This document shows positions 1 through 54,472 of a stretch of DNA of 64,000 nt, piece after piece. The notes beneath the pieces were generated by a model that worked only from the letters and a program-made list of their open reading frames with translations, was not told the origin of the DNA and searched no databases. A program made the position numbers and the translations under genes. Position 1 is the first letter of the stretch; the number at the start of each line of letters is the position of its first letter. The DNA comes from a virus (Duplodnaviria; Caudoviricetes), in IMG/VR virus record IMGVR_UViG_3300025087_000689; one strand, 5' to 3'.

Positions 1-2682
1 TTCATATTTATGATCATCATAAGGTAAAAACGACATGCCTATGATTTCATCAAAATGTTCGTATACCCAAGCACCTACTTTAATCCATTCATTGTTTTTA
101 ACGTATACTGTATTACTTACATTATGTGTTGACCAATTTTTTTGTAGCTTTAAATACCATTCCATTTGTTTCATGCAATCCCATTTATCTATAGTGATTG
201 CTTTGTCAGGTGCTTTAATTGGAAACTCAAGAACCATAGTTGTTCCTGTTTCAATATCTTGTTCTACTTCTGGTTTAAATGAAACTCCTTGTTCTTTCAT
301 TAATTTGAATAGTGGATCTATTTTTGATATACGATATCTTCTAATATAAAATTTACTATATCGAGGATGACAACCAGATGAAGCATCAACTACTTGACTA
401 ACAGTGCCACTTGGCTTTGAAGTCGTATAGGCTTTAGGGCACGTTATTTTAAGTATGTCGGAAGCGTGTTTTGCTGTTTTTATCACAACCTTTTTCAGTT
501 GTTTAAGAACTTGATCACTAAGTATTTCCGAATTATCTAGCTGACCTGTAAGACTTACGCCTATGATTCTTTCTTCATCGCATGTCTTTTTCCAGATAGA
601 TCTAACATATGGAAAATATGTAAATGAACTTTGGATAACACCTAACCATGTTGCTGTCTTTACCTTTTCTACAAGATCACTTATATCATCATCGCTTCTT
701 ATTACAGCTTCAGATAAGTTACACGTTTGGTAAGGTTTTAATATTACTTCTCCACAATTAGAAACATTACAACCCTCTGTCCAGTATGTATGAGAATTAT
801 TATCAACAGTTAAATTAAATACTTCTTCAGTTGATATAGTTGTTATAGTATTTATTTTAAAATTACTTTTAGTTTTTCTTCCTGTTTTTTTAGTATTAAA
901 TTTAATCTTTTTTATTTTATATTGTTGTATAAACCCTATTAATTCTACAAATTTATTTCTGTCTGTTGTGATATTTAAGTCATATGATTCTTTACACTCA
1001 TATGTACCATTATCAAATTTTACTTTAGTTGGTTTGTTGATAGTATAATATGATTTTAATCCAAGTGAATTTAATAATAATTGAGTATCTTTAATGATAT
1101 TTATTGAAGATGATTTTAAAGTTATTCTATTACCACACACAGAACCATTAGCACTATAAAGACCTCTTAAAAATCCTACAGACCTGATAGGATTTATTAA
1201 AAATCTATTAGGTATATATCTATCATATGTTTTAGGTAATTCGGAAGCTGTTATGGTTGTTAATATTTCATAAGCTTCTTCTTTTAAACCTGGTCGATGT
1301 TTTAATATTAGATCTTTGATTTCTGATTTGAAATAATCATTATCATTTTTTCCAATAAGTAAAAATACAAGGTTATTAGATGCCTTGTGTACTGAACCAT
1401 CTCCTATGACTAAACCATCCATAACATCTTGTATATTATATTCTAACTTGGAGTAAGGACCTGTTATTGTATCTATAGATTTGGCTTTTGATACTTCGAT
1501 CTTTTCTCCGTTTGAAATAATTCTATGTTCTGATGTTCCATTGAATATACCAGCAGATGTATTATATTCAAGTACTTTTTTAATTCCACTACTTTGTTTA
1601 TTAGTAACTATTGTCCATCCTTCACTTGACCATATTTTGTGCCCGACTTTTAATTCATCTATAGTAATTAATCCATTAGGAGTTAATACTTTAGACCATC
1701 CAGGTTGACAAGGATTACAACGCATTGATTTTAAATAAGTTCTGTCGGTTTGTTCAAGTTGTTTCTTAACTGCTTCAAGATTAAATATGCCTCTTTCACC
1801 AGAACCAGATTCAGCAAGAGCTGACCACTCACGAAGGAATGTTATTGTATCGGGTTTTTCTAAATAAGCGACACTATTGTTAGCCATACTACGATGTTTT
1901 GGAAATGGATGATCTTTCGAATGACGCATTTCGTCGTCATTAATGTCACTAAAACTAATACAACTTGAACGACGAGTCCCACCAACTACAACAATTTCTG
2001 CTATTTTGCAGCATATATCATGACATTCTAACGATGATAATTTTCGACCTCCTGCCTTATTTATCATTTCTTTAGCAAATAACATTAGATCAATTAAAGG
2101 TTGCGGTCCACTAGATCTTCCACCCATAGTTTTAAGAGGTGTGCCATATGGTCTAAGTCGAGAGTAATCAATATGGACATCTTCTCCATTAAACCAAGTT
2201 TCAAAAGCAAATTTGATAGCATTTGCCCAACCTTCTCTTGTATCTTCTACGAAATAATCATCTCTTCTTTGTAATACAGGATGTTTAATTATAGGTAGTT
2301 TATGTATATTTTCTTTTTCTACACTGAAACCTACACCAGTTCCACACATAAGAATATATGCTAATTCAGAAAACGACGTGATAGAATCTATTGGAGTATA
2401 GGAACAGTTGTATAAAGCAATATTATCTTTTTTTGCGGCTGGTCCAGCTGTAGCAACTAATCTCATAGAAGGCATTACACTAAAATTTAACATACCTTCT
2501 TGTATAGATGTCCATACCTTACCAGGAATTCTATCGGCATGTCGAGCTTCTTCTCTTAAGAATCTTATTACTCTTTCTGTTACTTCTTCCCAATTTTCTC
2601 TTCTATTGAGTTCTGGTAACCATCTACAATAAGATCTTAAAGCTACAAATTCAGATGCTATATTTGGATAATGAATTTTCAT
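1..2682 (-). CDS. nrdJ: Class II (B12-dependent, monomeric RTPR-type) ribonucleotide reductase with intein; 3' end runs off the window
   Basis: Hand translation from ATG 2682 (ATGA overlap with upstream gene): MKIHYPNIASEFVALRSYCRWLPELNRRENWEEV..; CNP|CGEVILKPYQTCNLSE; ends ..GMSFLPYDDHKYE at position 1. Missed by the ORF track because it has no stop in the window. Confidence 0.93.
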   Translation of the reverse strand, partial: MKIHYPNIASEFVALRSYCRWLPELNRRENWEEVTERVIRFLREEARHADRIPGKVWTSIQEGMLNFSVMPSMRLVATAGPAAKKDNIALYNCSYTPIDSITSFSELAYILMCGTGVGFSVEKENIHKLPIIKHPVLQRRDDYFVEDTREGWANAIKFAFETWFNGEDVHIDYSRLRPYGTPLKTMGGRSSGPQPLIDLMLFAKEMINKAGGRKLSSLECHDICCKIAEIVVVGGTRRSSCISFSDINDDEMRHSKDHPFPKHRSMANNSVAYLEKPDTITFLREWSALAESGSGERGIFNLEAVKKQLEQTDRTYLKSMRCNPCQPGWSKVLTPNGLITIDELKVGHKIWSSEGWTIVTNKQSSGIKKVLEYNTSAGIFNGTSEHRIISNGEKIEVSKAKSIDTITGPYSKLEYNIQDVMDGLVIGDGSVHKASNNLVFLLIGKNDNDYFKSEIKDLILKHRPGLKEEAYEILTTITASELPKTYDRYIPNRFLINPIRSVGFLRGLYSANGSVCGNRITLKSSSINIIKDTQLLLNSLGLKSYYTINKPTKVKFDNGTYECKESYDLNITTDRNKFVELIGFIQQYKIKKIKFNTKKTGRKTKSNFKINTITTISTEEVFNLTVDNNSHTYWTEGCNVSNCGEVILKPYQTCNLSEAVIRSDDDISDLVEKVKTATWLGVIQSSFTYFPYVRSIWKKTCDEERIIGVSLTGQLDNSEILSDQVLKQLKKVVIKTAKHASDILKITCPKAYTTSKPSGTVSQVVDASSGCHPRYSKFYIRRYRISKIDPLFKLMKEQGVSFKPEVEQDIETGTTMVLEFPIKAPDKAITIDKWDCMKQMEWYLKLQKNWSTHNVSNTVYVKNNEWIKVGAWVYEHFDEIIGMSFLPYDDHKYE
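757..1710 (-). mobile_element. Intein (318 aa, LAGLIDADG-type) in NrdJ, immediately before the thiyl-radical Cys of NPCGE
   Basis: Starts CQPGWSKVLT, has DGLVIGDG and FLRGLYSANGS blocks, ends YWTEGCNVSN|C; removal restores NP-CGEV. Confidence 0.92.
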
Positions 2683-3392
2683 ACTGTATATATCTCCAAT
2701 GGTTTGAAATTAAAACTATCACTAGCTACAAAGATAAACTCTATTCCTTCATGTAAGCCAACATAAGCTTCTTGATTTTCTTTACCATGAAGATGTCCAT
2801 ATATACATTTTGAAACGTTATATGTCTTCATGATTTTTAGAATTTTATTATCTCCGCCAGTGTAAGATTTATGTATGGGTGGATAGTGTGATACTAATAT
2901 TCTTGTGGTGAATATTTGTGGTATTATCTTTAATGTATTTTCTAGTTTGATACATTCTTTATTATATCCTTTTCTGTATTCTTCTTTAAATTCTGGATGA
3001 GTTTCGTTCATATAGCCTTTGACACTCATAATAGCTATGGAATCATGAAGATTAAAATAATCATTTGATGTGAGAGATACTATTGTTTTGTAGTTATCGA
3101 ATAGGAAATCATTAGTTTTAGTTGCTGTTTGGTAATAAAAGTCATGGTTTCCTAGAGTAATAATCTTTTTACCGGGCAATGATTCAATAAAATCGAAATC
3201 TGGTTTTCCTTTATATATGTTCGACGACCAAGAAATATCACCGGCAATAATTACTATATCATCTGAAGATATATTTTTCCAACCATCCTGGATTCTTTCT
3301 ATATGATTTTCCCAAACACTTCCAAATTTAGACATGTTTTTTTCTGGATTAGCTATAGCTAAATGTAAATCACTTGTTCCCCACAACTTCAT
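2679..3392 (-). CDS. Calcineurin-like metallophosphoesterase
   Basis: SDLH, AGD, LGNHD, SHYPP, YGHLH motifs. Confidence 0.9.
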   Translation of the reverse strand: MKLWGTSDLHLAIANPEKNMSKFGSVWENHIERIQDGWKNISSDDIVIIAGDISWSSNIYKGKPDFDFIESLPGKKIITLGNHDFYYQTATKTNDFLFDNYKTIVSLTSNDYFNLHDSIAIMSVKGYMNETHPEFKEEYRKGYNKECIKLENTLKIIPQIFTTRILVSHYPPIHKSYTGGDNKILKIMKTYNVSKCIYGHLHGKENQEAYVGLHEGIEFIFVASDSFNFKPLEIYTV

Positions 3393-3850
3393 AATGGTAA
3401 CTCCAATATGAAATCTTTTGGATGTTCAGAAATATCATCTAATAATCCTAATTGTTCTATCATGGATATAATTTCATTGAGAACATAATTTCTATCTTTG
3501 AATGTATCAAGTCTACCCATACTCAAATTAATATTTCGATTTCCTGGTAACTTGAAATATTCTGGATCTTGTAAATCTCCCAAATGTGCACAATCAAAAC
3601 CAATCCATTTACCTTCGGGTAAAAGTATAGTGCATCTTTCTAGATCTTTATTTTCATATGTAATTCCACCATGAACATCGAGACTATTGCTTTCTTCTTG
3701 GAAATTAATATTGTATTTTTGATGATACCATGGTATAAATACATAACCACATAGAAAACCTATTTTATTATCTTTAATGCAGTAGAGATAGTTTTTTATA
3801 GTATTAAATTCTAACATTAGAACAACTCCAACTGGGGATTTATTTTCCAA
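3389..3850 (-). CDS. Conserved phage hypothetical protein
   Basis: VHGGITY..WIGFDCAHLGD motif typical of a phage DUF; true start probably downstream. Confidence 0.7.
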   Translation of the reverse strand: MENKSPVGVVLMLEFNTIKNYLYCIKDNKIGFLCGYVFIPWYHQKYNINFQEESNSLDVHGGITYENKDLERCTILLPEGKWIGFDCAHLGDLQDPEYFKLPGNRNINLSMGRLDTFKDRNYVLNEIISMIEQLGLLDDISEHPKDFILELPL

Positions 3851-6800
3851 TCGAAGATAGCAAATAACTTATCTATCTGTTCTAGATAGTATCTTTCATC
3901 AAGTTGATCAGCTGAGTCTACGTATTGTGATATAGTATAGTAGTGATCCTTCTTGCCTTTGTTTTCTTTCAGAGCTTCCTGTAATGCCTTACATGGTGGT
4001 GCTTTCTTAGTAACAAAGTAATCAACTTGAAGACCATCTTCAACTTTAGTCTTCAATCTTTCTTCAACCTGTAGTCCTACTACTCTTTGAAGGGACATAC
4101 CATTCTTGTAACCTTTAAGATCTTTGCTGAAGGTCACTCTAAATTTAAAGGCACTTAAAGGATATTGTTTGAGGTTTTTTAGTTTAGTTGCTGTTAATAA
4201 ATGATCAGTGACACTCTGATCAAGAGTCATCTGACAAACAGTATCAAGTATAGTGTCACAGACTCCGGCTTGTTTAGAAGATTTAAAAGCAACTCCATGT
4301 TTCTCAATAACAGTCTTACCCTTCTTGATCTTACGGATGGCATAGTTTTTCATACGGTAAAAATAACCATCAATGATCTCATCCTTATCAAGAGCCATAT
4401 AAGAAGTAACACCTTGGTTATCCTTAATGTGTTCAGCTATCTGTTTATTGATATTATCAATATCAACATCTTTATCAACTATCATACCATCTGTGTCAGT
4501 TCCTACAACACTTTCTCCTAGTAAACTTAAAGTAAATCTAGTGGTCCATCTACACATTCCTGTTATAGCTATAGCAGTAGCCATGTCTCCGTATGAAGTA
4601 AAAGTTGAACCTAACATTCCGAAAATACTGTTCATAACAACTTTTATAGCTATTTGCCGACTATCGTAAGCATCTGTTTCAGCTTTTGTTTTAGCTTCCT
4701 TAAGAAGTTGTTTTAATCTTGTTCGTTCGTTTGATAGTTTTTCTATCTCTTCTTTTAAGAAACCGATTTTGGACATGTCAATTGTTATTTCTATATTTTT
4801 ATTGAAATTTTGATCCGGTATATCTAAAATCATGAACTTGCTCTTGCGGTAGAAACTATACTTCCCAGTAAGTTCTTTAAGACCTGTAATTCTAGTTGTG
4901 TCTGGACCGAGATTCCAAGTTCGGATTGCGGAAGGATAATAAGAACTAAAATCCACTTTATATAAATTCTTTATATATCCAAATTTATGTGCTTCGACAA
5001 TAGCACCCTCAAATCTAGAACCAAGTGTATATATTCTTCCAGGTTCTATTTCACCTGTTGAATTTCCGTCCTCATCTTCTCTATTGTTTCCATATCTTTC
5101 TTTATTAGAATCTAATGGTATAAGATTTAATCGTTTACAATGACGAGCACATATAATCTTTGGAATGAAAGATGGAAAACAACCCACGATAGAACCAAGA
5201 GGAACCTGCATTAATTCAGCTAATGCTATAGCATTGGGTAAGTATACATCAGAAACCACCTTAGTAGCATTAACATCTGAAGTTAGGTACTCCCTTAGTT
5301 GTGGTGTTCCGATGAGTGCTTGTGTGTTTTCCACATCGTCTCCCAAAGATAAGGCTTGGAATCCATACCATGCTGAGACTGATTTGAGTCCTTTACTTTT
5401 TATTCCGCTGTTTCCACACCAAACAGGATAACCATTACGTCTAACTAGAATAATCTGATTAGGAACTGTACAACAATAGACTTTACCTTTATAATCTATC
5501 CAACTATCAGTTGGAATTCTACTGTTGATAGTTGGTGTTGTTTGTTTTTTTATTATCATTACTCTATAGATAAAAAACGTCTTATTATTTAAGGTGTTAG
5601 AATCTAAATGGATAGATGAAGCAAAACCTAATTTTATAATTATTTCCTGGACATCATTAGCAAGTTGTTTTGACACTGTAGAATATAATGTTGTTATGGG
5701 ATAATTATTTTTTATTTTATCTTTTGTACCATCACCTAACATTAAAGCTTTAAACAATATATCTAAAAGGTTCTTGTTTAAATTTAATAGATCTCTTGGA
5801 ATAAATTTATCGTGTGCTTTTCCAAATTGTATTAAGTATGATACGAGTTGTTTACTTTTAAAGTTAATATTTCCGTTTTTATTAATTTTATTAAAATAAT
5901 AATTGGATTTGAATCCAAGGTTATGAATACAAGCTCTGATTTTTTTGACGTTGTCAGGTGTTTTATTACTTTGAGCTATATTTATATTGTATAGTCCAAA
6001 TTCTTTATTAATATAACAAGAACCCTCAGAGATATAATAACCTAAAAACTCTAACCATATTTCTAACTTAAATTCGTTATTCTTCTTGAAATTAAATTCC
6101 ATTTTTTTTCTATGTATTTCAGGAAGCTGAAAAGACTTTTTATCTATTCCAATCCAATTACCTACAGATCTTTTGACTTTATATTTCTTATTGATTAATT
6201 CATCTGGTTTTTTAAATTCCCATATTTCTTCGTTATTATATCTTTTATCTTTTGGAAATTTTATAAAGAGGTCATGTGTTTTGGTTACTAATAAATCTAC
6301 AGATTTATTGTTGATCTTATACATTTTATTATCGTAGTTATAAGATGTATGTTCTATAGGTAACTGATACTCTAAAGTATCAGTATGTTCATTTAAAGTA
6401 GCTACTTTTTCACTTTCATTAATATCTTTGAATAATTTCCATCCAGTTTCACATAAAATTTCCGTCTGATCATCATAACACATAGATTGGTCTTTGCGTG
6501 CAGGTATTATACAGTCCAGATGCACTCGACCATTAAACTCAATACTGTCTTGACCTTCTTTGTAACGAAATTTGCCATATCTTCCTAACTGATCTAAGTC
6601 TATTCCATACTTCAACATCCTCTGGACTATATAAGGCAAGTCAAAGTTATGTCCATTATAAGTTACGATAACATCAGGATTAATTTGTCCATAATAACTA
6701 AGAAAGTCCAGAAGTAATTGGCTATCATTGCCTCTGGTGTAGTTGTCAAAAATCTGTACAGGGTTATCATTGTGTTTACATCCTATCGCTATGACGGGCG

Positions 6801-7200
6801 ATGTTTGAGGTCGCGGAAAGATACCATTCCCTTTAGTTAGTACTTCTATATCGAGGTACAACACATCTAATGGTTGTGTATTAGGAAATTGAAGTGGGTA
6901 GTCTGGTAAGTCTACAAAGAGTTGTTCTGTATAAGGTAACTTACAAAACAACTTACCTTCCATTTGTAACTGTTTAGCCTTCTCATCGTTGATCTGAACT
7001 GTCTCAGCTTCCATTTTGAACATGGTAGTCTCGACATTATCTGGCAGACGAATGGCTTTTATGTCTGTGGATTTTAGATGATGATTAGGCTTCTCAGCTA
7101 TAAGATATGGTTTGAATGGTAGAGGTCTCCTAATGATCTCTTTATTCACAGTAACAATAAGATTCTCACCGTAAGCATTGAATAGAAGAGGTACTCTCAT
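3817..7200 (-). CDS. polB: Family B DNA polymerase with intein
   Basis: ExoI YLDIE, ExoII YNGHNFD, ExoIII YLTSD; VDFSSYYPS, KVVMNSIFG, GTDTDG. Confidence 0.93.
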   Translation of the reverse strand: MRVPLLFNAYGENLIVTVNKEIIRRPLPFKPYLIAEKPNHHLKSTDIKAIRLPDNVETTMFKMEAETVQINDEKAKQLQMEGKLFCKLPYTEQLFVDLPDYPLQFPNTQPLDVLYLDIEVLTKGNGIFPRPQTSPVIAIGCKHNDNPVQIFDNYTRGNDSQLLLDFLSYYGQINPDVIVTYNGHNFDLPYIVQRMLKYGIDLDQLGRYGKFRYKEGQDSIEFNGRVHLDCIIPARKDQSMCYDDQTEILCETGWKLFKDINESEKVATLNEHTDTLEYQLPIEHTSYNYDNKMYKINNKSVDLLVTKTHDLFIKFPKDKRYNNEEIWEFKKPDELINKKYKVKRSVGNWIGIDKKSFQLPEIHRKKMEFNFKKNNEFKLEIWLEFLGYYISEGSCYINKEFGLYNINIAQSNKTPDNVKKIRACIHNLGFKSNYYFNKINKNGNINFKSKQLVSYLIQFGKAHDKFIPRDLLNLNKNLLDILFKALMLGDGTKDKIKNNYPITTLYSTVSKQLANDVQEIIIKLGFASSIHLDSNTLNNKTFFIYRVMIIKKQTTPTINSRIPTDSWIDYKGKVYCCTVPNQIILVRRNGYPVWCGNSGIKSKGLKSVSAWYGFQALSLGDDVENTQALIGTPQLREYLTSDVNATKVVSDVYLPNAIALAELMQVPLGSIVGCFPSFIPKIICARHCKRLNLIPLDSNKERYGNNREDEDGNSTGEIEPGRIYTLGSRFEGAIVEAHKFGYIKNLYKVDFSSYYPSAIRTWNLGPDTTRITGLKELTGKYSFYRKSKFMILDIPDQNFNKNIEITIDMSKIGFLKEEIEKLSNERTRLKQLLKEAKTKAETDAYDSRQIAIKVVMNSIFGMLGSTFTSYGDMATAIAITGMCRWTTRFTLSLLGESVVGTDTDGMIVDKDVDIDNINKQIAEHIKDNQGVTSYMALDKDEIIDGYFYRMKNYAIRKIKKGKTVIEKHGVAFKSSKQAGVCDTILDTVCQMTLDQSVTDHLLTATKLKNLKQYPLSAFKFRVTFSKDLKGYKNGMSLQRVVGLQVEERLKTKVEDGLQVDYFVTKKAPPCKALQEALKENKGKKDHYYTISQYVDSADQLDERYYLEQIDKLFAIFDWKINPQLELF
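5410..6480 (-). mobile_element. Intein (357 aa, LAGLIDADG-type) in the PolB exonuclease domain
   Basis: CYDDQTEIL..FLGYYISEGS..ALMLGDG..VWCGN|S. Confidence 0.9.
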
Positions 7201-8800: not shown

Positions 8801-10333
8801 TTAAATATCTAATAACTTATAAACTTGTCTACCTTCACTATGTTCATCACATAATGTTCTTATCCATCCACCTGCTCGAAGGATACCAGGTTTACCACAC
8901 TGTTCGCAGGTTACTTCTGACTTAGCTTCGCCTTCGTTGATGATGTTATATACTATATCTATGTCTTCTTTGCTCGTACCAGCAGCAAAATCAACATAAT
9001 ATCTTAAAGAATTACCACAAAAGTAATGTTTACCTTCTCTTCTAACTAAAAGAATATTTTCTGGCACTGATACGCAATATACCATATCATCGTAATCAAT
9101 CCATTCTTCTCTATATGATTGAGATGAGTTTTCCTGATATTTTTTCTTATTCATTGTATTATGAAAGTTAGTTTTTGTCATCCAATTAATAGCATACGAT
9201 GTATGTTTACCATTAATTATAATATCTTTTCCTTTATGTGTAGAAGGTGGTATTTCTTTATATATAGTTGATGAATTGCCACACTTAATAATTAGTTCTT
9301 GAACGTTATTAATTAATGTTTTACTAGTTGAATATAGCATATTAGCTGTTTTAGCTTTATGTCCATCTCCTAAATATAATTCAGTTAAAAAATAATTTAT
9401 TAATTCAGATGTTAAATGTTTTATAAATTCTGGAACTTTTTTATTTGGTGCTAAATGACCACAATTTTCTTTAAGCCAAGTTCCTAAAATAGTATTATAT
9501 ATTCGTATAATACCACCCTTACAAAGCTTATGTTTTAATTCTAGCTTATCTAATATTGATTCTACTCTTAAAATTTCTTTTGTATTTTTGTAATTTAAAC
9601 ATAAACTAATATTATTTTTATGATAGTGACCTTCTGCTATGTACCAGCCTAGTAATTGTAAGAATGGAATGATATTATAAATTTGATGGTTATATTCGTA
9701 GGTTCTTTTTACCTTCCTATTTATAGAATCGGTATAGTTATCAGTTCTTGTGTGTCCTTCAATACGATAACATTCAATAGATTTACCAGACCATGTACTA
9801 GTTTTCTTAAATCTTTTATTTTTCTTGAAATATTTTTCTGGAACGCATAACTCAAAAGGATAATCTCTTTTAATAACATTTCCTTTAATTTTGCCATTAT
9901 AATAACTACCTTTAGCACAGTATAGATTATGATTAGGTGTTACACAAAGGTTAACTTGTTTAGTATTTAAAAAATACATTAATCCTTTGTATTTATACTG
10001 TATCATATCCGACGGAATAACAAATTTTAATTCATCTTGATTAGATAATGAAGCAACCATATCTGTTGATTTTAAATCTTTAAAAAATTTCCATCCATTG
10101 TTAGTTAAGATTTCCGTTTTCTTATCATAACAACCAAATTTTTCTTTCACTTGGACTACAGTAACCTTAGTACTTGTGGCTGTTATGCGTTCACATATCT
10201 TCTTAATAAGAGCGAACCATCCATCATCTGGAAAGCCATAGCACATTAAACTGACTTGGTTACTAACATTCTTCCCATTAGGAAATAGATTAGGAAAAGT
10301 TGTGAATAAATAATCTTCTTTTTCTTTAGTCAT
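8801..10333 (-). CDS. Small conserved phage protein (136-aa extein, QVKEKFG-SLR..CEQCG..TLC) with intein
   Basis: Removing the intein gives DDGWFALI..QVKEKFG|SLRYY..TCEQCGKPG..GWIRTLCDEH. Confidence 0.85.
   Translation of the reverse strand: MTKEKEDYLFTTFPNLFPNGKNVSNQVSLMCYGFPDDGWFALIKKICERITATSTKVTVVQVKEKFGCYDKKTEILTNNGWKFFKDLKSTDMVASLSNQDELKFVIPSDMIQYKYKGLMYFLNTKQVNLCVTPNHNLYCAKGSYYNGKIKGNVIKRDYPFELCVPEKYFKKNKRFKKTSTWSGKSIECYRIEGHTRTDNYTDSINRKVKRTYEYNHQIYNIIPFLQLLGWYIAEGHYHKNNISLCLNYKNTKEILRVESILDKLELKHKLCKGGIIRIYNTILGTWLKENCGHLAPNKKVPEFIKHLTSELINYFLTELYLGDGHKAKTANMLYSTSKTLINNVQELIIKCGNSSTIYKEIPPSTHKGKDIIINGKHTSYAINWMTKTNFHNTMNKKKYQENSSQSYREEWIDYDDMVYCVSVPENILLVRREGKHYFCGNSLRYYVDFAAGTSKEDIDIVYNIINEGEAKSEVTCEQCGKPGILRAGGWIRTLCDEHSEGRQVYKLLDI
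9011..10132 (-). mobile_element. Intein (374 aa, LAGLIDADG-type)
   Basis: CYDKKTEILT..LLGWYIAEG..ELYLGDG..YFCGN|S. Confidence 0.9.
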
Positions 10334-12516: not shown

Positions 12517-12533
12517 AAGAACCATTTACATTA

Positions 12534-12946
12534 TGGAGACGGTGGGTCTTGCACCCACGTCCAAGATACATCTGTCATTCAATGAATTAACTTCGTATTC
12601 AGTTTTAAGTTCTGACAAACTAGGGGCGAGCGAGTTACCGCCTGCCCTCCACCACTAGTTTTTAAGGACTAGAAACCCGTTGCACTTATTTTAAAGAGTA
12701 GCATCACACTCCGTTTTGTTACTTTATGTTGCCAGGTTGTAACCACCCCGCTTGGTCTCGGCTGTTAAGCGTAGACAGATTCAGTGACGGTTTCGACCGT
12801 GAAGTCTTCTCCGTCCATGAAACAAGCGAACTTAGAATTGTTAGATTCGTCTGTTCTGTTTTGATGGATAGTTTTAAAAGGCCAACCATCATCCTTTGAA
12901 GCCATTGAAATCCGTCAGTTACTTGTCGAAACTAAATTACGTCCCC
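12534..12946 (-). ncRNA. ssrA: tmRNA (413 nt); tag frame 12851-12765 = (A)DESNNSKFACFMDGEDFTVETVTESVYA*
   Basis: 5' GGGGACG..GTTTCGAC; 3' GTGGG-TGCAAGA-CCCAC-CGTCTCC-A; G3-U70 alanine determinant; internal ORF ends GCT TAA. Resume codon is inferred. Confidence 0.92.
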
Positions 12947-28578: not shown

Positions 28579-31500
28579 TCAGACACTAACGTTTTTACAA
28601 TCCAACTTTTTATATTTAACATTTTTCTTTCCTACGTAAGAGATTAAGAACTTATCCTCATATTTCACTATTGCATCTGACTTTAACTTTCCGTTGTTGT
28701 CTATGATCTCATCTGTAAGTAGATCCTCAATTTTGTCACGAATGAGACGTCTCATCGGTCTAGCGTTTGAGTTTTTCTCTTCAGCTACAAGATCCAATAT
28801 CTTTTCCTTTGCCGAAGAGTCTACAGTGACCTTAATATTAAAATTCTTTTCAATATTTCGACTTATCTCAAAAAATTGAAGATTAAATATTAAAGATAGG
28901 TCTTCTCGTTTTAACGGATCAAAAATAACTGTATTTCCAATACGGTTAAGAAATTCAGGTCGAAAGAAGTTTTTTAATTCTGCATGAATAGTTGTATGAA
29001 TATTAGTCTTTTTTTCTTCAAAATTCTTATGAATGAAACCGAAGTTATTCTTCGTAATATCTTGAGAACCTATGTTTGAAGTCATAATAATGATGGTGTT
29101 TTCAAGACTTACTGAACGATTTAGCTTATCTGTAATTCTTCCATCATCCATCATCTGAAGGAAAATATCGTAAACGCTAGGATGAGCTTTCTCAACTTCG
29201 TCGAAGAGTAATACGCAATAAGGATTATCTTTAAGTGCGTTAATAAGTTCACCGCCCTCCTCGTATCCAATATAGCCAGGAGGTGAATTATGAACACCTA
29301 CAAAATTCGCAATATAAGTTGATTCATTAGCAATTGTTAAATCATATACGTATCCGTCGTATTTAACTTTCTTTTTTTGATTGATGTGATAATAATAAAA
29401 CAGGTGATCTTTATATTGTTTTCTCTGAATATTGAAAACTTTAGTTACTTTAGTTTTTAATTTTAATGATGGAAGCTTAGTATTTAGTAGTTCAGCATTA
29501 TCACCAGTAATAATTATTTTATATACCTTTTCATTTTGTAGATAATTGAATTGTGTAGAAAATCCAAGTTGACGAAGGATAGTATTAAATTGAGATGCTA
29601 AATCTGAAGAAACAGTTGTATATGTTATCTTTTGTTCTATTGTTTTGGAACCATCTCCAATAATAAGTGTTTCTATTAGATTATACAATTTGACTGGATT
29701 ACATCCAAGAATATAACTTGGAATTTTTTTCTCATAACATGTTCTTCCAAACAATTTAGAAAGCATAATATTTATAATTCTACTTGAAAATACTAAACAA
29801 ATTGAATTTCTATTTGTATGTCGTATATTAATGTGAATATGTTTTCCGAATATTTTGTGTATAAGTAGTTTTGTTTCTTGAACGTATTTTTCTTCGTGTT
29901 TGCCAAATGTTATTTTTATATTTTTCCGATTTTTAGAACATCCACCTTCACTTAAGTAATAACCTATAAATCGGAGGAATGTATTATTTATTTTAATAAA
30001 TCTATTAAATTTTACGTTTTGATAAGCCCAGATATTCTTATTATCATATTGATATCGAGGTAAGTCTACTATATAATCTTTCAAATCGATTACAGGTAAA
30101 TTTGTATCAAGACTTAGTATTTTTGGATATACTATTATATCATTTTCATCTATATCCTGACTATTTCTAAACTTAATGTTTTTTATAGAATAAGAAGATT
30201 TTTTAACTCTTTTATTGTAAAACTCAGGTTTAATACATGGTATTTCATGTTTTGACGTACAATTTAATCGTAAATTGCTATTTGCTATTCTATATGAGTC
30301 GAGTAATCCAGTATATTTATACTTATGGGTGTGTGTTACATTCTGAATTTTTCCGGTATGTGAAAATACTTTATCTCCGATCCGAACTTCTGAAATCGAT
30401 TTCATAGTTCCGTCTGCCATAAGTATTTTAGTTTTAGGAACAAAACATCCCAAAAGTCTCGAGACTGTAAACTGATCACTATACTCTGACATATCAAATC
30501 GACGAATATGTTTTTCACTGCCGAATAAACCCAAAGCTAATTGTTTAGCAAGATGAGTTTTACCTACTCCTGTAGGTCCTAAGAATAGGAATGAACCAAT
30601 AGGTTGTCCTGACTTTCGCAAGCCAACTTGAGATCTTCTAATAGCTTTAACAACAGATGTTATAGCGTCAGTTTGTGATATTAGATGATATCTTAAGAAC
30701 TCTTCTAGTTTCTTTAGTTTAGTAATGTTATCAGCTGAAAGTTCAGCTATGGGAATCTTAGTTATGCGAGAAACTGTATTTGTAATATCATGGATTGAAA
30801 GTTCAAGTCCTCTCACTTCAGAAACTAGACGAGCTCTTTTTACTTCAAGTTCATGTTCGAGATTCTTTCTATCATCCATTACTCCTGCAGCATCTATGAT
30901 ATGATCTTCATTCATATGAATAGAAATATCTTCTTCGAGAGCCTTAATCTTTTCTTCGAGAATTTTTATTTCTGGGTTGTTGGCGATAGAAGAGATTTTC
31001 TTATCTCCGCAAGCTTGGTCAAGTATATCAATTGCCTTATCAGGAAGTGCTCCACCGTGGATGTAGCGTACAGCAAGGACCACAATATCGTGGATAAGAT
31101 TCTTGTTAACATGTATGCCATGATGTTCCTCGTATTTTTTACAAATACCATTAAGAATTTTAATAGCTTCTTCTTCTGTTGGTTCAGACACTTTAATCCG
31201 TTGAAATCTACGTTCTAATGCACCGTCTTTTTCAAACACCTCCCGTTCTTCTTTAGTCGTAGTTGCACCAATAACCTGAATCTTACCTTTTGATAGGTAA
31301 GGTTTTAAGATGTTAGCTGCATCATTTCCATGAGATGAATCACCTGTACCAATCATAGTATGAATTTCATCTATGAATAAGATAATATTTTTGGCGGAAA
31401 GAACCTCTTTAATTATAAACTGCATTCTTTCTTCAAAATCTCCACGAAACTTAGTTCCAGCTACAAGAGAAGCGAGATCAAGAGCGACTACTCTTTTACC

Positions 31501-32151
31501 TCTTAACATCTCTGGAACTTGTTCATTGGTAATAGACTGAGCTAAACCCTCGACAATAGCCGTTTTGCCAACACCAGGATCACCAACAAGTAAAGCATTT
31601 CTCTTGATGCGTCGACAAAGAGCGTTGATCAGAGATCTTAGTTCTACTTCTCTACCAATCACAGGATCTAAACCACCTTGTTTAGCTTCCTGAGTTAGAT
31701 CAGTACTGTATTTGTCCAGTGTTGGTGTTTGAACCGATTCATTATTCTTTCTATCTGGTGGTTTTGATAGAGTTATAAAGAGTCTATCTGTTGCAATCCC
31801 AAGATCTTGCAGATATGTTATTCCATCCTGTTCTGACATACAATAGTTGAGAATCGTCATTGGAGTAAATAACGTAGATTGCGTTCGAAGACGTACACGT
31901 TCTTCAACTATTTTCATTTCTTTTGAGAAACTCTCAGGACGAATAATTCGCTTATCTTTTAGTCTTATGATAGAAGGATGTGTGGTGAATTCTAATTCAT
32001 CGCCGCATTCTACAAGAAGATTGTAGGCTGTCGATGATCCATCGAAGATAATAGCTTGAATTAGATGTGTAATATTAAGAACTTCATCAAATTCATTGGA
32101 AATGAATTGAGCAGTCTCAAATATTATTCTGGTTCTAGCTGTACGTACCAA
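28579..32151 (-). CDS. ClpA/B/C-family AAA+ chaperone with intein
   Basis: LDPVIGR, GDPGVGKT, GTKFRGDFEER, GPTGVGKT, DMSEY..RLLG|SPPGYIGY, FRPEFLNR. Confidence 0.93.
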   Translation of the reverse strand: MVRTARTRIIFETAQFISNEFDEVLNITHLIQAIIFDGSSTAYNLLVECGDELEFTTHPSIIRLKDKRIIRPESFSKEMKIVEERVRLRTQSTLFTPMTILNYCMSEQDGITYLQDLGIATDRLFITLSKPPDRKNNESVQTPTLDKYSTDLTQEAKQGGLDPVIGREVELRSLINALCRRIKRNALLVGDPGVGKTAIVEGLAQSITNEQVPEMLRGKRVVALDLASLVAGTKFRGDFEERMQFIIKEVLSAKNIILFIDEIHTMIGTGDSSHGNDAANILKPYLSKGKIQVIGATTTKEEREVFEKDGALERRFQRIKVSEPTEEEAIKILNGICKKYEEHHGIHVNKNLIHDIVVLAVRYIHGGALPDKAIDILDQACGDKKISSIANNPEIKILEEKIKALEEDISIHMNEDHIIDAAGVMDDRKNLEHELEVKRARLVSEVRGLELSIHDITNTVSRITKIPIAELSADNITKLKKLEEFLRYHLISQTDAITSVVKAIRRSQVGLRKSGQPIGSFLFLGPTGVGKTHLAKQLALGLFGSEKHIRRFDMSEYSDQFTVSRLLGCFVPKTKILMADGTMKSISEVRIGDKVFSHTGKIQNVTHTHKYKYTGLLDSYRIANSNLRLNCTSKHEIPCIKPEFYNKRVKKSSYSIKNIKFRNSQDIDENDIIVYPKILSLDTNLPVIDLKDYIVDLPRYQYDNKNIWAYQNVKFNRFIKINNTFLRFIGYYLSEGGCSKNRKNIKITFGKHEEKYVQETKLLIHKIFGKHIHINIRHTNRNSICLVFSSRIINIMLSKLFGRTCYEKKIPSYILGCNPVKLYNLIETLIIGDGSKTIEQKITYTTVSSDLASQFNTILRQLGFSTQFNYLQNEKVYKIIITGDNAELLNTKLPSLKLKTKVTKVFNIQRKQYKDHLFYYYHINQKKKVKYDGYVYDLTIANESTYIANFVGVHNSPPGYIGYEEGGELINALKDNPYCVLLFDEVEKAHPSVYDIFLQMMDDGRITDKLNRSVSLENTIIIMTSNIGSQDITKNNFGFIHKNFEEKKTNIHTTIHAELKNFFRPEFLNRIGNTVIFDPLKREDLSLIFNLQFFEISRNIEKNFNIKVTVDSSAKEKILDLVAEEKNSNARPMRRLIRDKIEDLLTDEIIDNNGKLKSDAIVKYEDKFLISYVGKKNVKYKKLDCKNVSV
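29287..30447 (-). mobile_element. Intein (387 aa, LAGLIDADG-type) in Clp AAA2, within RLLG|SPPGY
   Basis: CFVPKTKILMADG..FIGYYLSEG..LIIGDG..FVGVHN|S. Confidence 0.92.
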
Positions 32152-49199: not shown

Positions 49200-49600
49200 A
49201 ATGGTGGAGTTATTTATGTTTTACCACTTTCACCCCATAATACTCGAAATAAAGGCAAGGGCCCCCCCATGTTGGTGGAGGAACCCCTGCTGATTGTCAG
49301 CAAATCTTTATCCTAAAATAAGCTAACGGCAATCATGTTTATTACCTTACGGTAATTCATATATATATATCTAACCAATTCAGTTCGGAAAAGTTTAAAA
49401 TACCTGACTTGCCACTAGTCAACTTCCCATCGATAACCACCAATAGATGATCACTGATGGGAAGGTCGGATTCGAACCGACGTGCGGCATAGTTTTCCTT
49501 ACTAACCAGTCAGAAGTATACGGTTCAGATTGAGTCTGGGACGTTCAAGTGTTTAAGCTTAAATCTGACTATAAGCCTAAGTCTGAATAAAATAACGTCC
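49200..49600 (-). ncRNA. Candidate structured ncRNA with a permuted tRNA-like (T-arm / closed helix / D-arm) domain
   Basis: GTCGG-TTCGAAT-CCGAC (49481-49465), CTTCCCATC..GATGGGAAG, TGACT-AGTGGCA-AGTCA, GGAAAA/TTTTCC enclosing stem. Confidence 0.7.
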
Positions 49601-49604
49601 AAAT

Positions 49605-50357
49605 TTAGTTGATTATCAAATTGATCAGAGTTTGGCCGATCTTGGAAGTATCCGTTTCGGTCTTATTGGCTCTGGACCTAGCACGTTTGACACCTTCAAT
49701 AAGAGTATCACATCGAGCCAACATCTGTGACTTCTCCAAAGGAGAAAGAGAACCAGCTGTAAGAACCTCCTTGAACTCACCTACAGGTTCATCGGTAGTG
49801 ATGAGTTGGGCTTGGGCTGGATGTTTGTCAGTTGCTTCAGCAAGAGTAATCGGTTTCTGCATCTTCCTTGTTCTGACACGTTTGAATTCTTCTGTCTTGT
49901 AGATGCCTTCCTGTTCGTCTTTCTTCCACTTGTGGAGAGGATCTAATGTAGGGATGTTTTCCAAGACTCCACGCAATGACGTGAGGATCTTTTCATACTG
50001 GACGAGAGCTGTAACAGGAAGATCCTTTGCAATTTCAACGTCTTTACCAGAGCCATCATCTACCAAAAGATTGGCCTTGGCAACAGCATTGGTCCGTTCC
50101 TTTTGCAGAATGATGTCCATATGTTTGACAATGTATGGCATCGTATACTTGAGTTTAGCACCGACAGTTGTAACAATCGGTTTTACTTCTGCTTCAGGTC
50201 TGTCCCTGTCAGCGTCATTGAAAGGATTGTATGTCTTGGCGGATCCAACAAAGTGATCCTTCTTTGTTGCGAATGTGTGTTGTGTTTCGGCGAGAATCTT
50301 CACTGCTGTGTTCTTTGCATCGCCTTCAACGGCGATAAGTTCGTGTAACTGACCCAT
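49605..50357 (-). CDS. Conserved uncharacterised ~250-aa helical protein
   Basis: LHELIAVE..LPVTALVQYEK..IPTLDP..EATDKHPAQ..PVG; resembles a widespread DUF (from memory). Confidence 0.8.
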   Translation of the reverse strand: MGQLHELIAVEGDAKNTAVKILAETQHTFATKKDHFVGSAKTYNPFNDADRDRPEAEVKPIVTTVGAKLKYTMPYIVKHMDIILQKERTNAVAKANLLVDDGSGKDVEIAKDLPVTALVQYEKILTSLRGVLENIPTLDPLHKWKKDEQEGIYKTEEFKRVRTRKMQKPITLAEATDKHPAQAQLITTDEPVGEFKEVLTAGSLSPLEKSQMLARCDTLIEGVKRARSRANKTETDTSKIGQTLINLIIN

Positions 50358-50399: not shown

Positions 50400-50473
50400 C
50401 ATCCCCTGAGAGGTTTGCACTCCCGACCTAAACATTAGAAGTGTTTTGCTCTATCTAGCTGAGCTAAGGGGAC
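50400..50473 (-). tRNA. tRNA-Arg(UCU), T-loop TGCAAAC
   Basis: AAACA-CTTCTAA-TGTTT. Confidence 0.88.
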
Positions 50474-50481
50474 AAAATCTA

Positions 50482-50556
50482 CATTCCCGGAGAGATTTGA
50501 ACTCCCAACATTTTGCTTCGTAGGCAAAAGCTCTAATCCAATTGAGCTACGGGAAT
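50482..50556 (-). tRNA. tRNA-Arg(ACG)
   Basis: TTTGC-CTACGAA-GCAAA. Confidence 0.9.
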
Positions 50557-51914: not shown

Positions 51915-52541
51915 TTAGATGTTATATTTTAATAAGTAATCAGGCGATATTACTTTAAAACTAATCCGGTTTAAACTAAAATCGTTTAGCTCTCGGATTA
52001 CTATACCCTCTCTAAGATCATCAGGACCTGATTCGTAGGAGCCTTTCGACATCTCCACGAGTTTATCAATCGTGGTGTCTTTTAAAGATATAACATGATT
52101 CACAACTGGAACAGTTTTCAGTCCTAGGAAGGTGCAAACAAGACCCATCTCAACAGGATCTAAATATCTGTGTTGTTTGACGTTATATACGTTAAAAACA
52201 AACAGTTCAAGTTCTTTGAGCTTGCATCTGTTCTTCTGTATACCTGGACCTGCTATTTCACCTTGGATCCAAAGTGTTTCACCATAACTTTTGAGTTGTT
52301 TTTTGAGATTATATTTTATCGCGATTTTACTCCAGTTTGAGTTATCATCCTCTTTCTTTTTTAATTCGCGGGAGTATATTCCAAAGAAATCGCGGAAGAT
52401 ACCTTTCTTATAATAGTAAGTCGCAGAACAATTATGAACTAAAATACCGTTAGCAAAATAATTATGAAATGATGTTTCTATATCATATTTTTTAGAATTG
52501 TTTTCTATTTTCTTGATGAATACAATTTCATCCGTTTTCAT
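51915..52541 (-). CDS. Split RNA ligase, C-part: IntC (37 aa, 52431-52541) plus ligase C-extein
   Basis: KYDIETSFHNYFANGILVHN|CSATYY..QGEIAGPGIQKN..VFNVY..REGIVIR..SFKVIS. Confidence 0.92.
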   Translation of the reverse strand: MKTDEIVFIKKIENNSKKYDIETSFHNYFANGILVHNCSATYYYKKGIFRDFFGIYSRELKKKEDDNSNWSKIAIKYNLKKQLKSYGETLWIQGEIAGPGIQKNRCKLKELELFVFNVYNVKQHRYLDPVEMGLVCTFLGLKTVPVVNHVISLKDTTIDKLVEMSKGSYESGPDDLREGIVIRELNDFSLNRISFKVISPDYLLKYNI

Positions 52542-52542
52542 A

Positions 52543-53541
52543 TTAGTTCTCCATTTTTTTTAAGATTAGTTGTTCTAATTTTTTTTTATCTTTAAAACAA
52601 TTTTTAATTTCATCTTCCCAAATATACACAACTTTAAATCCTTTAGATTCTGCTAATTTCTTTTTTTCTTTGTCGTAGTCCCAAATTTCTCTTGCTGATT
52701 CAATTCCATAATTGAATTTGATAAGATCATCAGCCTTATATATGTTTGGATTAGCGTGCCAATAATCTCCATTTACTTCAATAATAATTTTATTATCGAT
52801 TAATATATCATAGATTCTTCGTTTTTTATTTGAAATTTTAATAACAAAATTTATACTGAATGGAATATTAAGTTTTAGTAAAATCTCTCTAATAGAATAT
52901 TCTAATGAAGAGTTATAAATTCCTCCACTTTTACAATTTGCTTCAATACATTTATCGTTTAGTAATGATTTATTTAGCCATTCATTTTTTTCTTCGTCTG
53001 TAATGTTCTTCCATTTATCTTTCATTACCTTTGAAAAGTATTCTGTTCGTGTCACTCCATATTTTGTTAGTAGGTTACTATCTAAACTTGTTTTTATTTT
53101 TTCAATAATTTCTTTTACTTGAAATATATTATCTATATCATTACCATACTTTTTATGTAATGTATTTTTAGTTGTAGGTAGTTGAAATGTATTTTTAACT
53201 CCATATTTTTTTATACATGTATTTTTATATTTGTCTCTTGTTTCTTTGAGATTTGTGGATTCTTTAATAGTTCTTTTTTTAATATTAAAATATTTTAGCA
53301 AAAATAATGTAAAAGAATAATTAATATCGTATTCTTTTTTTAAGTCTGGTAAAGATTTTTTATTATTAATATATAAATCTTCTAATTTTTCTTTATTACA
53401 TAAAGTAGGATAATTATGTTTAATACATAAATACTTTAGTTCAGTAACATTTGTACTTGTTTTTTCTTTACATCTTCTTAGATGAGAGGTTTCTCCTCGT
53501 GGTTTTAGTTCTCTAGAACAAAACGGACATTTAAGTATCAC
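52543..53541 (-). CDS. Free-standing PD-(D/E)xK (Vsr/DUF559-like) homing endonuclease between the split-intein halves
   Basis: KKYGV repeats; YDILIDNKIIIEVNGDYWH; YIWE. Confidence 0.82.
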   Translation of the reverse strand: MILKCPFCSRELKPRGETSHLRRCKEKTSTNVTELKYLCIKHNYPTLCNKEKLEDLYINNKKSLPDLKKEYDINYSFTLFLLKYFNIKKRTIKESTNLKETRDKYKNTCIKKYGVKNTFQLPTTKNTLHKKYGNDIDNIFQVKEIIEKIKTSLDSNLLTKYGVTRTEYFSKVMKDKWKNITDEEKNEWLNKSLLNDKCIEANCKSGGIYNSSLEYSIREILLKLNIPFSINFVIKISNKKRRIYDILIDNKIIIEVNGDYWHANPNIYKADDLIKFNYGIESAREIWDYDKEKKKLAESKGFKVVYIWEDEIKNCFKDKKKLEQLILKKMEN

Positions 53542-53590
53542 ATCAACCTCCTTAGTATATCTATATTATACTAAAAAGATTGAATGAATT

Positions 53591-54472
53591 CTAGTTTTCT
53601 AGTAAAATATCTCCTTCTTTCAAATCTTCTACTTTGCGATAACAGTAAGAATTTGGTAAATATATCTTATGATTACCTGTAACTTTTATGATTTTACCAT
53701 TTTTTGTGGTGATTTCATACCATTCGTGTTTATTTTCATTTATAAAAGTATTTTTAATTCTAGTTAATTGTATTTTATTAGTTGTAGGATTTACACCAAA
53801 TACTTTACCTTTATATTTAGTGTCGCAAATTTCTTTTATTGTTTTTAGTCCTTTATCTGTGTGAAGTATTGTATTTTCATCAAGACAACCATCAATTTTA
53901 GTTGTAACATACCACTTTTTATCTGAGTTAAGATGAGGTTCAAGATCACGGAAGATAGCTTGTACCCTTGTTTCATCTGTATGAGGAATGCAAGAAGGCC
54001 AACCTTTATCCTTCTTTCTGAAGATAAGAGGTCGTATCTTACGATATAACTTGAACTTACAAAGAAAATGATCAATCGGATGTTGTCTTTTAGCAGTAGG
54101 TGAACATTCACCAGCTTCATCTGTATCGATCTTAGTTACACCTATGATGTCTGTTACATCCATTCCCTCAATAGGGTCTACGATTGCAGGAAAGTCCTTT
54201 AAAGGCATGATAAGACCTTGTGATGTCACACCACGCATTTTCAAAGTTTTGACCTTGTAATGCCTTTTTTCCATAAAGGAGAAGGCTGGAATTATAGGTA
54301 ATCTTGAATCGATCTCAAAATAGATCACAAGATCCCCGGTTTTAATACCGTTATCTATAGCTGTTATACATTTCCATCCATTACCATGCATACTAGCTAA
54401 GACTATTTTATCTGCACCAGGAATAACTTCAAGTGAACTGATTTTTTGTATTGATGCTAGCTGACGAGTCAT
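53591..54472 (-). CDS. Split RNA ligase (Rnl2/DRB0094-like), N-part plus IntN (98 aa, 53594-53887)
   Basis: RQLASIQKI..GAD..YFEIDS..KMRG..SQGL..TDETRVQ..TTKIDG|CLDENT..TGNHKIY..GD. Confidence 0.92.
   Translation of the reverse strand: MTRQLASIQKISSLEVIPGADKIVLASMHGNGWKCITAIDNGIKTGDLVIYFEIDSRLPIIPAFSFMEKRHYKVKTLKMRGVTSQGLIMPLKDFPAIVDPIEGMDVTDIIGVTKIDTDEAGECSPTAKRQHPIDHFLCKFKLYRKIRPLIFRKKDKGWPSCIPHTDETRVQAIFRDLEPHLNSDKKWYVTTKIDGCLDENTILHTDKGLKTIKEICDTKYKGKVFGVNPTTNKIQLTRIKNTFINENKHEWYEITTKNGKIIKVTGNHKIYLPNSYCYRKVEDLKEGDILLEN

Follow-up and report, generated by a model that had tools for sequence, protein, structure and literature searches.

What does the DNA behind an uncharacterized protein gene encode in a stretch of viral DNA (Duplodnaviria; Caudoviricetes; IMG/VR record IMGVR_UViG_3300025087_000689), and do gene and spacer belong together? 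The stretch analyzed here, hereafter the window, is 64,000 nt long and represents 64 kb of a ~221-kb contig; an initial annotation had read its minus strand, just beyond the gene's stop codon, as a periodic leader followed by a tRNA mimic. We find that this spacer (49247-49604, minus strand) is a non-coding RNA of ~350 nt and a one-headed member of a structured RNA family, and that the family is genetically tied to the preceding gene, DUF7873, in phages and in bacteria without Ro60. Our favored explanation, to which we assign a probability of roughly 0.55, is that DUF7873 and the tRNA-mimic RNA form an RNA-protein particle independent of Ro60. Bacterial Y RNAs that mimic tRNA have, to our knowledge, been known so far solely as Ro60 partners, and YrlA Y RNAs normally lie beside Ro60/TROVE and RtcB. 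Here, a different, uncharacterized protein and new RNA modules accompany the inside-out tRNA body, an arrangement that suggests a second class of tRNA-shaped ribonucleoprotein, also widespread, and offers a concrete and testable RNA partner for a domain of unknown function.

The DUF7873 open reading frame (ORF; 49605-50357) matches the Pfam profile PF25283 over residues 1-249 (231.7 bits, E 1.4e-68; curated cut-off, 27 bits) and has at least 405 homologues in metagenomes, while DUF7873 loci number at least 546 among species-representative prokaryote genomes and 338 in viral contigs. Downstream of homologues with 59% and 50% identity, the same RNA architecture recurs with differing stem sequences, and a simple pattern search recovered a T arm with a capped acceptor in at least 44 distinct IMG/VR loci. 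We gathered 80 IMG/VR loci by protein alignment of DUF7873 and built a covariance model, R1, from 37 aligned cores. In this seed alignment, 94.7% of cells are paired (60% in shuffles) and 19 of 20 pairs show compensatory changes. The corresponding values for 71 viral and bacterial copies outside the seed are 96.4% (63% in shuffles, 37-51% in slid controls) and 20 of 20; although the alignment of these copies was fitted to R1 and is hence biased toward structure, chance is a very unlikely explanation in view of both kinds of control (slid and shuffled) and the range of pair types. The core in the window scores 76.8 bits with R1, whereas tandem-tRNA junctions in the same window score only 25-31 bits.

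A covarying structured RNA downstream of the homologues, on which the proposal of the initial annotation hinged, is indeed found: in ~73 of 75 viral loci, ~35 of them non-seeds, DUF7873 is followed at a distance of 75-260 nt by a full-length R1 match. Three cultured phages also carry the match, phiRSL1, Klebsiella phage FBKp24 (phiKp24), and Arthrobacter phage Racecar. Among bacterial and archaeal loci, ~59 of 80 carry a match after the gene at E<=1e-3, and with filters off, eight more loci (seven bacterial) gave weaker matches in the right place and on the right strand. Genome-wide searches put the best match beside the sole DUF7873 gene in Nonomuraea, Abditibacterium, and Nocardia genomes as well as in FBKp24. 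Flanking genes vary from locus to locus, no conserved third gene surrounds the bacterial loci, and Rfam 15 contains no model for this DUF7873-linked RNA family. The carriers are phages, many with the RNA inside tRNA clusters, and chromosomes of many bacterial phyla. Cultured ones are available, namely phiKp24 (Klebsiella), phiRSL1 (Ralstonia), Racecar (Arthrobacter), and species of Nocardia and Nonomuraea, and might reveal what use, decoding aside, phages have for tRNA-like RNAs.

At the center of the RNA lies a circularly permuted tRNA body: the V region and T arm come first, then the two acceptor strands, 3' before 5' and with the capping loop between them, and last the D arm. The flanks close this body by forming an anticodon-stem equivalent (81-84% of cells paired across the family, compensatory changes in 4 of 4 pairs), which lacks an anticodon loop and instead gives way to an internal loop and an outer helix. 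Family-wide, the acceptor stem is 96-99.6% paired with covariation in 7 of 7 pairs, the T stem is 99-100% paired, and the D stem, at 99% paired, also has compensatory changes. Tertiary signatures of tRNA are equally evident: 106 of 108 copies have U8, the D loop fits A-R-N-G-G-N-A and nearly every T loop UUCRANY, G53:C61 hardly varies, the acceptor (7 bp) and T stem (5 bp) give a 12-bp stack, and the Levitt pair 15:48 covaries (G:C in 78 copies, A:U in 27, other in 3). We infer that the RNA folds into a tRNA-like L shape. Of the 108 copies, 67 encode N73-CCA directly behind the 3' strand of the acceptor, and nearly all keep C74. The capping loop ranges from 5 to 161 nt without conservation; the acceptor stems share no constant identity set, and the 3:70 pair is G.U in 4 of 108.

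An encoded CCA suggests that the loop is excised by RNase P and 3' trimming, as in the YrlA of Mycobacterium smegmatis, which has a 7-bp acceptor, is cleaved by RNase P, and receives a CCA end (PMC4201824). By this analogy, such excision would be the simplest reading of the permuted acceptor. The initial annotation had described an acceptor with no free CCA end; this holds for the window, where the acceptor is loop-capped, but most relatives encode CCA in the capping loop, and the acceptor is probably opened by processing.

Table 1. Coordinates of the DUF7873 gene and of the RNA elements that follow it in the window.
Feature	Positions	Strand	Basis or detail
DUF7873 protein gene, 250 aa	49605-50357	minus	Pfam PF25283 match
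5' domain closed by stem P1	49539-49600	minus	GGACGU 49600-49595 pairs with ACGUCC 49544-49539; direct reading
Six AGNYU-type period-6 units, CAGACU UAGGCU UAUAGU CAGAUU UAAGCU UAAACA	49550-49585	minus	direct reading
Two extra units, CAGACU CAAUCU, immediately 3' of P1	49527-49538	minus	direct reading
Circularly permuted, anticodon-less tRNA-like core	49377-49506	minus	R1 covariance model, 76.8 bits, E 1.5e-16
Outer helix around internal loop CU/UUUAAAC	49387-49498	minus	GGAAAA 49498-49493 with UUUUCC 49392-49387; sequence and folding
Anticodon-stem equivalent and V region	49400-49490	minus	AUGCC 49490-49486 with GGUAU 49404-49400, V region GCAC 49485-49482; model helix 1
T arm, GTCGG-TTCGAAT-CCGAC	49465-49481	minus	5-bp stem, loop UUCGAAU; direct reading
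Capped acceptor	49423-49464	minus	3' strand 49464-49458, U73-C-A 49457-49455, capping hairpin 49454-49432, 5' strand 49429-49423
U8-U9 and D arm, GACU AGUGGCA AGUC	49406-49422	minus	arm 49420-49406, loop holds GG; direct reading
6-bp hairpin with GUAA (GNRA) tetraloop	49341-49356	minus	sequence and folding
Interrupted hairpin, loop AGGAUA at 49314-49309	49291-49335	minus	folding
Intrinsic terminator, U tract CUUUAUUU	49247-49290	minus	15-bp stem 49290-49255, then U tract

The elements that the initial annotation had picked out in the window are all there (Table 1): both groups of hexamers, GGAAAA and the perfect T arm, a loop-closed helix of 9 bp resembling an acceptor, a D-arm-like element with its GG and with U8 ahead, UUUUCC closing the domain by pairing with GGAAAA, and three strong hairpins toward ~49200, the last of them the terminator. 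All of these elements are conserved. The 9-bp helix (49464-49456 with 49431-49423) represents the 7-bp acceptor plus two further pairs, its capping loop folding into a hairpin of its own. Two elements had been overlooked, the P1 stem around the repeats and the 5-bp anticodon-stem equivalent inside the outer helix. P1 is kept with compensatory change in relatives (GGACG/CGUCC in L001, GAACGU/ACGUUC in L004), comparable closing stems occur in further loci, and an AGCUUUA or AGACUUA unit straight after its 3' strand recurs in most; the outer helix and its asymmetric internal loop have the same layout in L015 and others. The R1 match downstream of DUF7873, the hexamers, and the AGGAUA loop place the window copy within the R1-defined family. 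Against shuffles, the fold of the whole spacer has a z-score of -6.1 and that of the core alone -5.1. A minimum-energy fold of the window that pairs the V region with the D loop was rejected (47.7% paired versus 46.2% in shuffles), and the flanks in a three-sequence alignment of the whole RNA aligned too poorly for use.

The period-6 tract is likewise conserved within the RNA. Between stop codon and tRNA body, AGN[CT]T motifs show a 2.5-fold excess, and in viral loci they are spaced at 6, 12, and 18 nt in 54, 38, and 21 cases versus ~1.1 expected; bacterial loci contain 45 pairs at 6-nt spacing versus 0.8 expected. The period-6 excess is 40- to 50-fold in viral and bacterial copies alike. The repeat unit has the profile Y-A-G-(A>C)-Y-U-N-A, and a high-GC bacterial example, from Nonomuraea, reads AAGCUG AGGCUG AAGCUG. 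The motif favors the sense strand (AGNUU 151 times, its reverse complement 81), which argues for a sequence-specific single-stranded motif, and it appears again just 3' of the tRNA body with the consensus AUUAGCAUAAA. The tracts usually flank a central element within the closing stem; in two-headed members (phiKp24, Racecar, phiRSL1), this element is a second permuted tRNA-like module. Since the window copy has no central element and its tracts abut, it represents the minimal, one-headed form. The earlier picture of a periodic leader and a tRNA mimic thus stands as regards the tract, but the whole is better described as a multi-module non-coding RNA able to be an independent gene. A peptide-coding or tmRNA-like (transfer-messenger RNA) tag function of the hexamers was dropped in view of stop codons and variable phase.

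Beyond the core, the 3' modules are more variable. About 25-30 nt past it, 22 of 75 loci carry a full tRNA in the ordinary order and 25 of 75 an isolated hairpin that resembles an anticodon arm, with a 5-bp stem and 7 nt in its loop; in the window, a GNRA hairpin takes this position, and an ordinary-order tRNA-like unit is absent. Hairpins with a GGNUA loop are enriched 25-fold 3' of the core (31 of 144 hairpins versus 19 of 2209 in controls) and are often the terminator itself, and AGGAUA is the loop of this type in the window. The ordinary-order tRNA differs in its anticodon between two near-identical loci (UGU in one of L076 and L079, UAA in the other) and reads as a stop suppressor in L043 (CUA by manual reading; tct, Arg, by ARAGORN) and L044 (UUA). 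In Cytophagales, where the RNA is multi-copy and dispersed, the ordinary-order units at the Bernardetia locus L170 have aberrant anticodon loops, for which ARAGORN reports "anticodons" of 4 nt and 2 nt.

The DUF7873 protein had been described as helical and probably oligomeric. An AlphaFold2 model built with 44 homologues (predicted local distance difference test, pLDDT, 80; predicted template modeling score, pTM, 0.53) is confident though elongated and contains long helices but also beta hairpins, making the protein mixed alpha/beta rather than purely helical. Self-association, at least as a dimer, is predicted as well: two copies score 0.75, whereas the best of three controls scores 0.00, contacts agree between runs to at least 99%, and the partner pLDDT is at least 89. 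Of 30 proteins whose structures are one-chain pairs, 20 attained a score of 0.75, as did 1 of 23 with single-chain structures; these counts apply only roughly, because DUF7873 was run with an alignment of our own making. The prediction supports a putative homodimer. Fold searches (Foldseek against PDB, BFVD, AFDB Swiss-Prot, and AFDB clusters; VIA-align wide; ESM Atlas) returned uncharacterized relatives or weak, non-specific matches only, the top match being 3kdq (Z 8.3; root-mean-square deviation 6.4), likewise uncharacterized. The protein had no match among PDB sequences, PHROGs, PADLOC, or NCBIfam, a single-sequence IMG/VR search gave no close relative, and neither DUF7873 nor ORF270 of phiRSL1 is mentioned in any paper that we found.

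How might such a protein and such an RNA work together? In the favored Ro60-independent particle, RNase P would cut at the acceptor 5' strand and the upstream half would be trimmed to a CCA end, giving a two-piece, base-paired molecule as described for the M. smegmatis YrlA. A DUF7873 homodimer would then bind the RNA, most likely at the repeat tracts, and the particle, analogous to Ro/Y RNA, could present the tRNA body to tRNA-handling enzymes or toxins for surveillance, repair, or decoy. A reader with two-fold symmetry would be in keeping with the pairing of the repeat tracts and with how often two heads occur. Targets of TRAP, the trp RNA-binding attenuation protein, consist of (G/U)AG-N2-3 repeats whose NAG is read one per subunit by a protein oligomer; the present tracts are similar in having NAG triplets at a period of 5-6 nt, binding by DUF7873 being putative. 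Unlike TRAP, DUF7873 shows no similarity to the TRAP fold and is predicted to form only a dimer, and the U at unit position 5 is also invariant. Phage copies sit in tRNA clusters beside RNA-repair genes, and in the window an intein-interrupted RNA ligase lies 2.3 kb away. The full scheme, in which a dimer reads a period-6 AG..U code on an RNase P-matured, two-piece, CCA-ended, anticodon-less body and surveys, repairs, or shields tRNA in tRNA-centered conflicts independently of Ro60, is tentative and somewhat unlikely to hold in every part, and a specific anti-defence role is likewise considerably less probable than the particle itself. In the closest long relative (L001), an anti-Pycsar Apyc1-like metallo-beta-lactamase gene (2655-3428) lies two genes upstream of DUF7873, suggesting an accessory or counter-defence neighborhood there.

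The closest known RNA is YrlA (Y RNA-like A; RF02553), a tRNA-mimic Y RNA that Ro60/Rsr binds in bacteria and mycobacteriophages, above all of the M. smegmatis type (Chen et al. 2014, PMC4201824), with the same order of V region, T arm, capped acceptor, and D arm; the initial annotation had recognized this order, and the family conserves it. Both RNAs have a closing stem formed by the flanks and occur in phages and bacteria, and both display tRNA tertiary signatures including the covarying 15:48 pair, which has also served as an argument for the tRNA-likeness of YrlA (PMC4201824). The 7-bp acceptor is shared with the M. smegmatis type, whose RNase P cleavage and CCA end would apply to the present RNA by analogy. 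In contrast to YrlA, the present RNA is three to four times longer, contains AGNYU period-6 tracts and a GGNUA-loop hairpin, often has a second head or an ordinary-order tRNA-like unit, and is linked to DUF7873 rather than to rsr or rtcB in carriers without Ro60. The YrlA model also gives 26 bits at 50426-50534 (minus strand) across the junction of two tandem tRNA-Arg genes, a class of false positives in which tandem tRNAs mimic the permuted layout. Two-piece tmRNA (RF01850, RF04321; alpha- and beta-proteobacteria, cyanobacteria) shares the order of T arm, acceptor 3' strand, CCA, intervening segment, and acceptor 5' strand and matures by excising the intervening segment, a step that may have its analogue here. 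Unlike two-piece tmRNA, the present RNA has no G3:U70 alanine pair, a canonical rather than degenerate D arm, and no recognized tag frame or pseudoknots. Permuted tRNA genes of the Cyanidioschyzon type also place the 3' half first, but the complete anticodon arm that circularization restores in them has no counterpart here, an anticodon loop being absent.

The family also accounts for odd tRNA and suppressor-tRNA calls in phage genomes. An 80-nt "tRNA-Sup-TTA" of phiKp24/FBKp24 was published as a suppressor tRNA (bioRxiv 10.1101/2021.03.02.433402). This call (L087, NC_061421.1 46041-46120) overlaps the upstream half of a permuted core, comprising hairpin, V region, T arm, acceptor 3' strand, and CCA, that lies downstream of the DUF7873 gene gp365 and scores 69.6 bits with R1 in the permuted arrangement. 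A suppressor tRNA does not fit here, since the matching acceptor 5' strand and D arm are found downstream of the CCA; the call is probably a mis-call.

Could the RNA simply be a member of one of these known classes? An ordinary YrlA whose Ro60 comes from a gene elsewhere, whether of the phage or of its host, would account for the module order and for a weak match of the YrlA model to L004 (35.6 bits, E 1e-4), and the window reveals only part of its contig. Yet the model finds nothing on the window element even at E<=10, and 0 of 20 loci reach the 69-bit gathering score. TROVE (PF05731) is absent from the scanned large ORFs of the window, in line with the initial annotation, and from 15 carrier genomes: 10 phage records, of which five are estimated to be 100% complete and three are complete GenBank genomes (phiRSL1, phiKp24, Racecar), and five whole bacterial genomes carrying DUF7873; the positive-control genomes were detected. 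The motif GNCGAAN0-1G near the 5' end of YrlA, a proposed Ro60 contact (PMC4201824), occurs in 8 of 69 5' regions versus 3.7 in shuffles (maximum 12), is thus not enriched, and is absent from the window RNA. Among four hallmarks of YrlA, domain order is present, while the gathering score, the Ro motif, and a Ro60 gene within ~4 kb on the same strand are not; with no TROVE in the carriers searched, a model score below threshold, and an unenriched Ro motif, a YrlA served by Ro60 is very unlikely and already largely refuted. Scarcely better is the prospect of a permuted or split tRNA gene or a two-piece tmRNA, matured into an adaptor by, for example, the nearby phage RNA ligase. The 3' half does precede the 5' half, CCA is encoded, a ligase gene is at hand, part of the FBKp24 copy has been published as a suppressor tRNA, and Rfam beta_tmRNA and tmRNA_permuted give weak matches at the junction (17.3 and 13.3 bits versus thresholds of 84 and 47), but the stem that should carry an anticodon loop opens into the internal loop and outer helix, G.U at 3:70 is rare and the acceptors have no constant identity set, ARAGORN calls neither tRNA nor tmRNA at the window element, and the window already encodes a standard tmRNA.

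Several observations weigh against the favored particle of DUF7873 and its RNA. For every family member, transcript, processing, and protein binding are putative; the protein family is not basic (median isoelectric point ~7, net charge ~0), and no RNA-binding fold was recognizable in fold-library comparisons. Many repeat units are quasi-palindromic (AGCU pairs with itself, AGACU with AGUCU), so that the tracts could be imperfect helices rather than single-stranded sites, and the window copy encodes N-C-A (U-C-A) only, not CCA. Moreover, ~14 of 80 bacterial loci, mostly in Cytophagales and relatives, have nothing after DUF7873, and because RNA copies lie remote from the gene there, cis linkage is not obligatory and the ratio of RNA to protein genes may differ from one. 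In all five such genomes searched, the RNA occurs elsewhere, frequently as several strong copies, and DUF7873 is retained. In Bernardetia, three complete tandem units ~520 nt apart lie 134 kb from DUF7873 (L170), each with repeats, permuted core, ordinary tRNA-like unit, and GGUUA-loop terminator; a 239-aa ORF upstream of these units was rejected as a DUF7873 relative, being unrelated. Alternatively, then, the RNA may act without DUF7873, as a decoy, sponge, or scaffold for RNase P, CCA-adding enzyme, tRNA-modifying enzymes, or tRNA-targeting toxins, its repeats binding a host protein or just forming helices and the gene being linked by co-expression or shared ancestry in a mobile cassette. 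A self-contained unit with its own terminator that multiplies away from the gene in Cytophagales would fit this alternative, as would the neutral protein with no RNA-binding fold match, and a tRNA-like body suffices for recognition by tRNA enzymes, as for YrlA (PMC4201824). We nevertheless regard it as rather doubtful: gene and RNA stay adjacent in ~73 of 75 viral loci and in most bacterial ones, throughout many phyla and with unrelated genes around them, genomes with remote RNA copies still retain DUF7873, and an AG..U repeat unchanged from Actinomycetota to Proteobacteria phages fits a co-inherited reader better than diverse host proteins. Those stand-alone units in Bernardetia and other Cytophagales also indicate an independent gene able to act in trans, not an appendage of a 3' untranslated region (UTR). 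A cis-acting 3' UTR or processing element, providing tRNA-like punctuation and stability to the DUF7873 mRNA or a tRNA-cluster transcript, is accordingly improbable, even though many phage copies lie inside tRNA clusters and the window shows no promoter-like site ahead of the RNA and a single terminator at the end of the unit; ~350 nt with four conserved modules, a covarying tertiary pair, and encoded CCA go far beyond the needs of a processing signal.

In this phage, the upstream tRNA-Arg genes, DUF7873, and the RNA probably share one transcript, which would end at the terminator near 49247; the segment from the DUF7873 stop codon to the RNA contains no promoter-like site. Among the runs listed, sampled sequence words of the window were present in groundwater and soil DNA data and next to absent from metatranscriptomes, and a nucleotide search of INPHARED with the locus matched the flanking tRNAs and nothing else.

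Elsewhere on the minus strand, the window encodes the standard one-piece tmRNA at 12531-12946 (RF00023, 57 bits versus a gathering score of 47), and it also holds 15-17 tRNA genes. The RNA ligase (51915-54472, minus strand) seemingly extends over three adjacent ORFs: 53591-54472 with the OB-fold N part and an intein start, 52543-53541 encoding a 332-aa DUF7487 protein, and 51915-52541 with the intein end and the RNA_ligase domain; it may be a fractured or split-intein gene. Further intein/LAGLIDADG insertions, all on the minus strand, occur at 1-2682, 3817-7200, 8801-10333, and 28579-32151, with a ribonucleotide reductase, a family-B DNA polymerase, a 510-aa ORF, and a ClpB-like double AAA+ protein as hosts, an unusually dense set for 64 kb.

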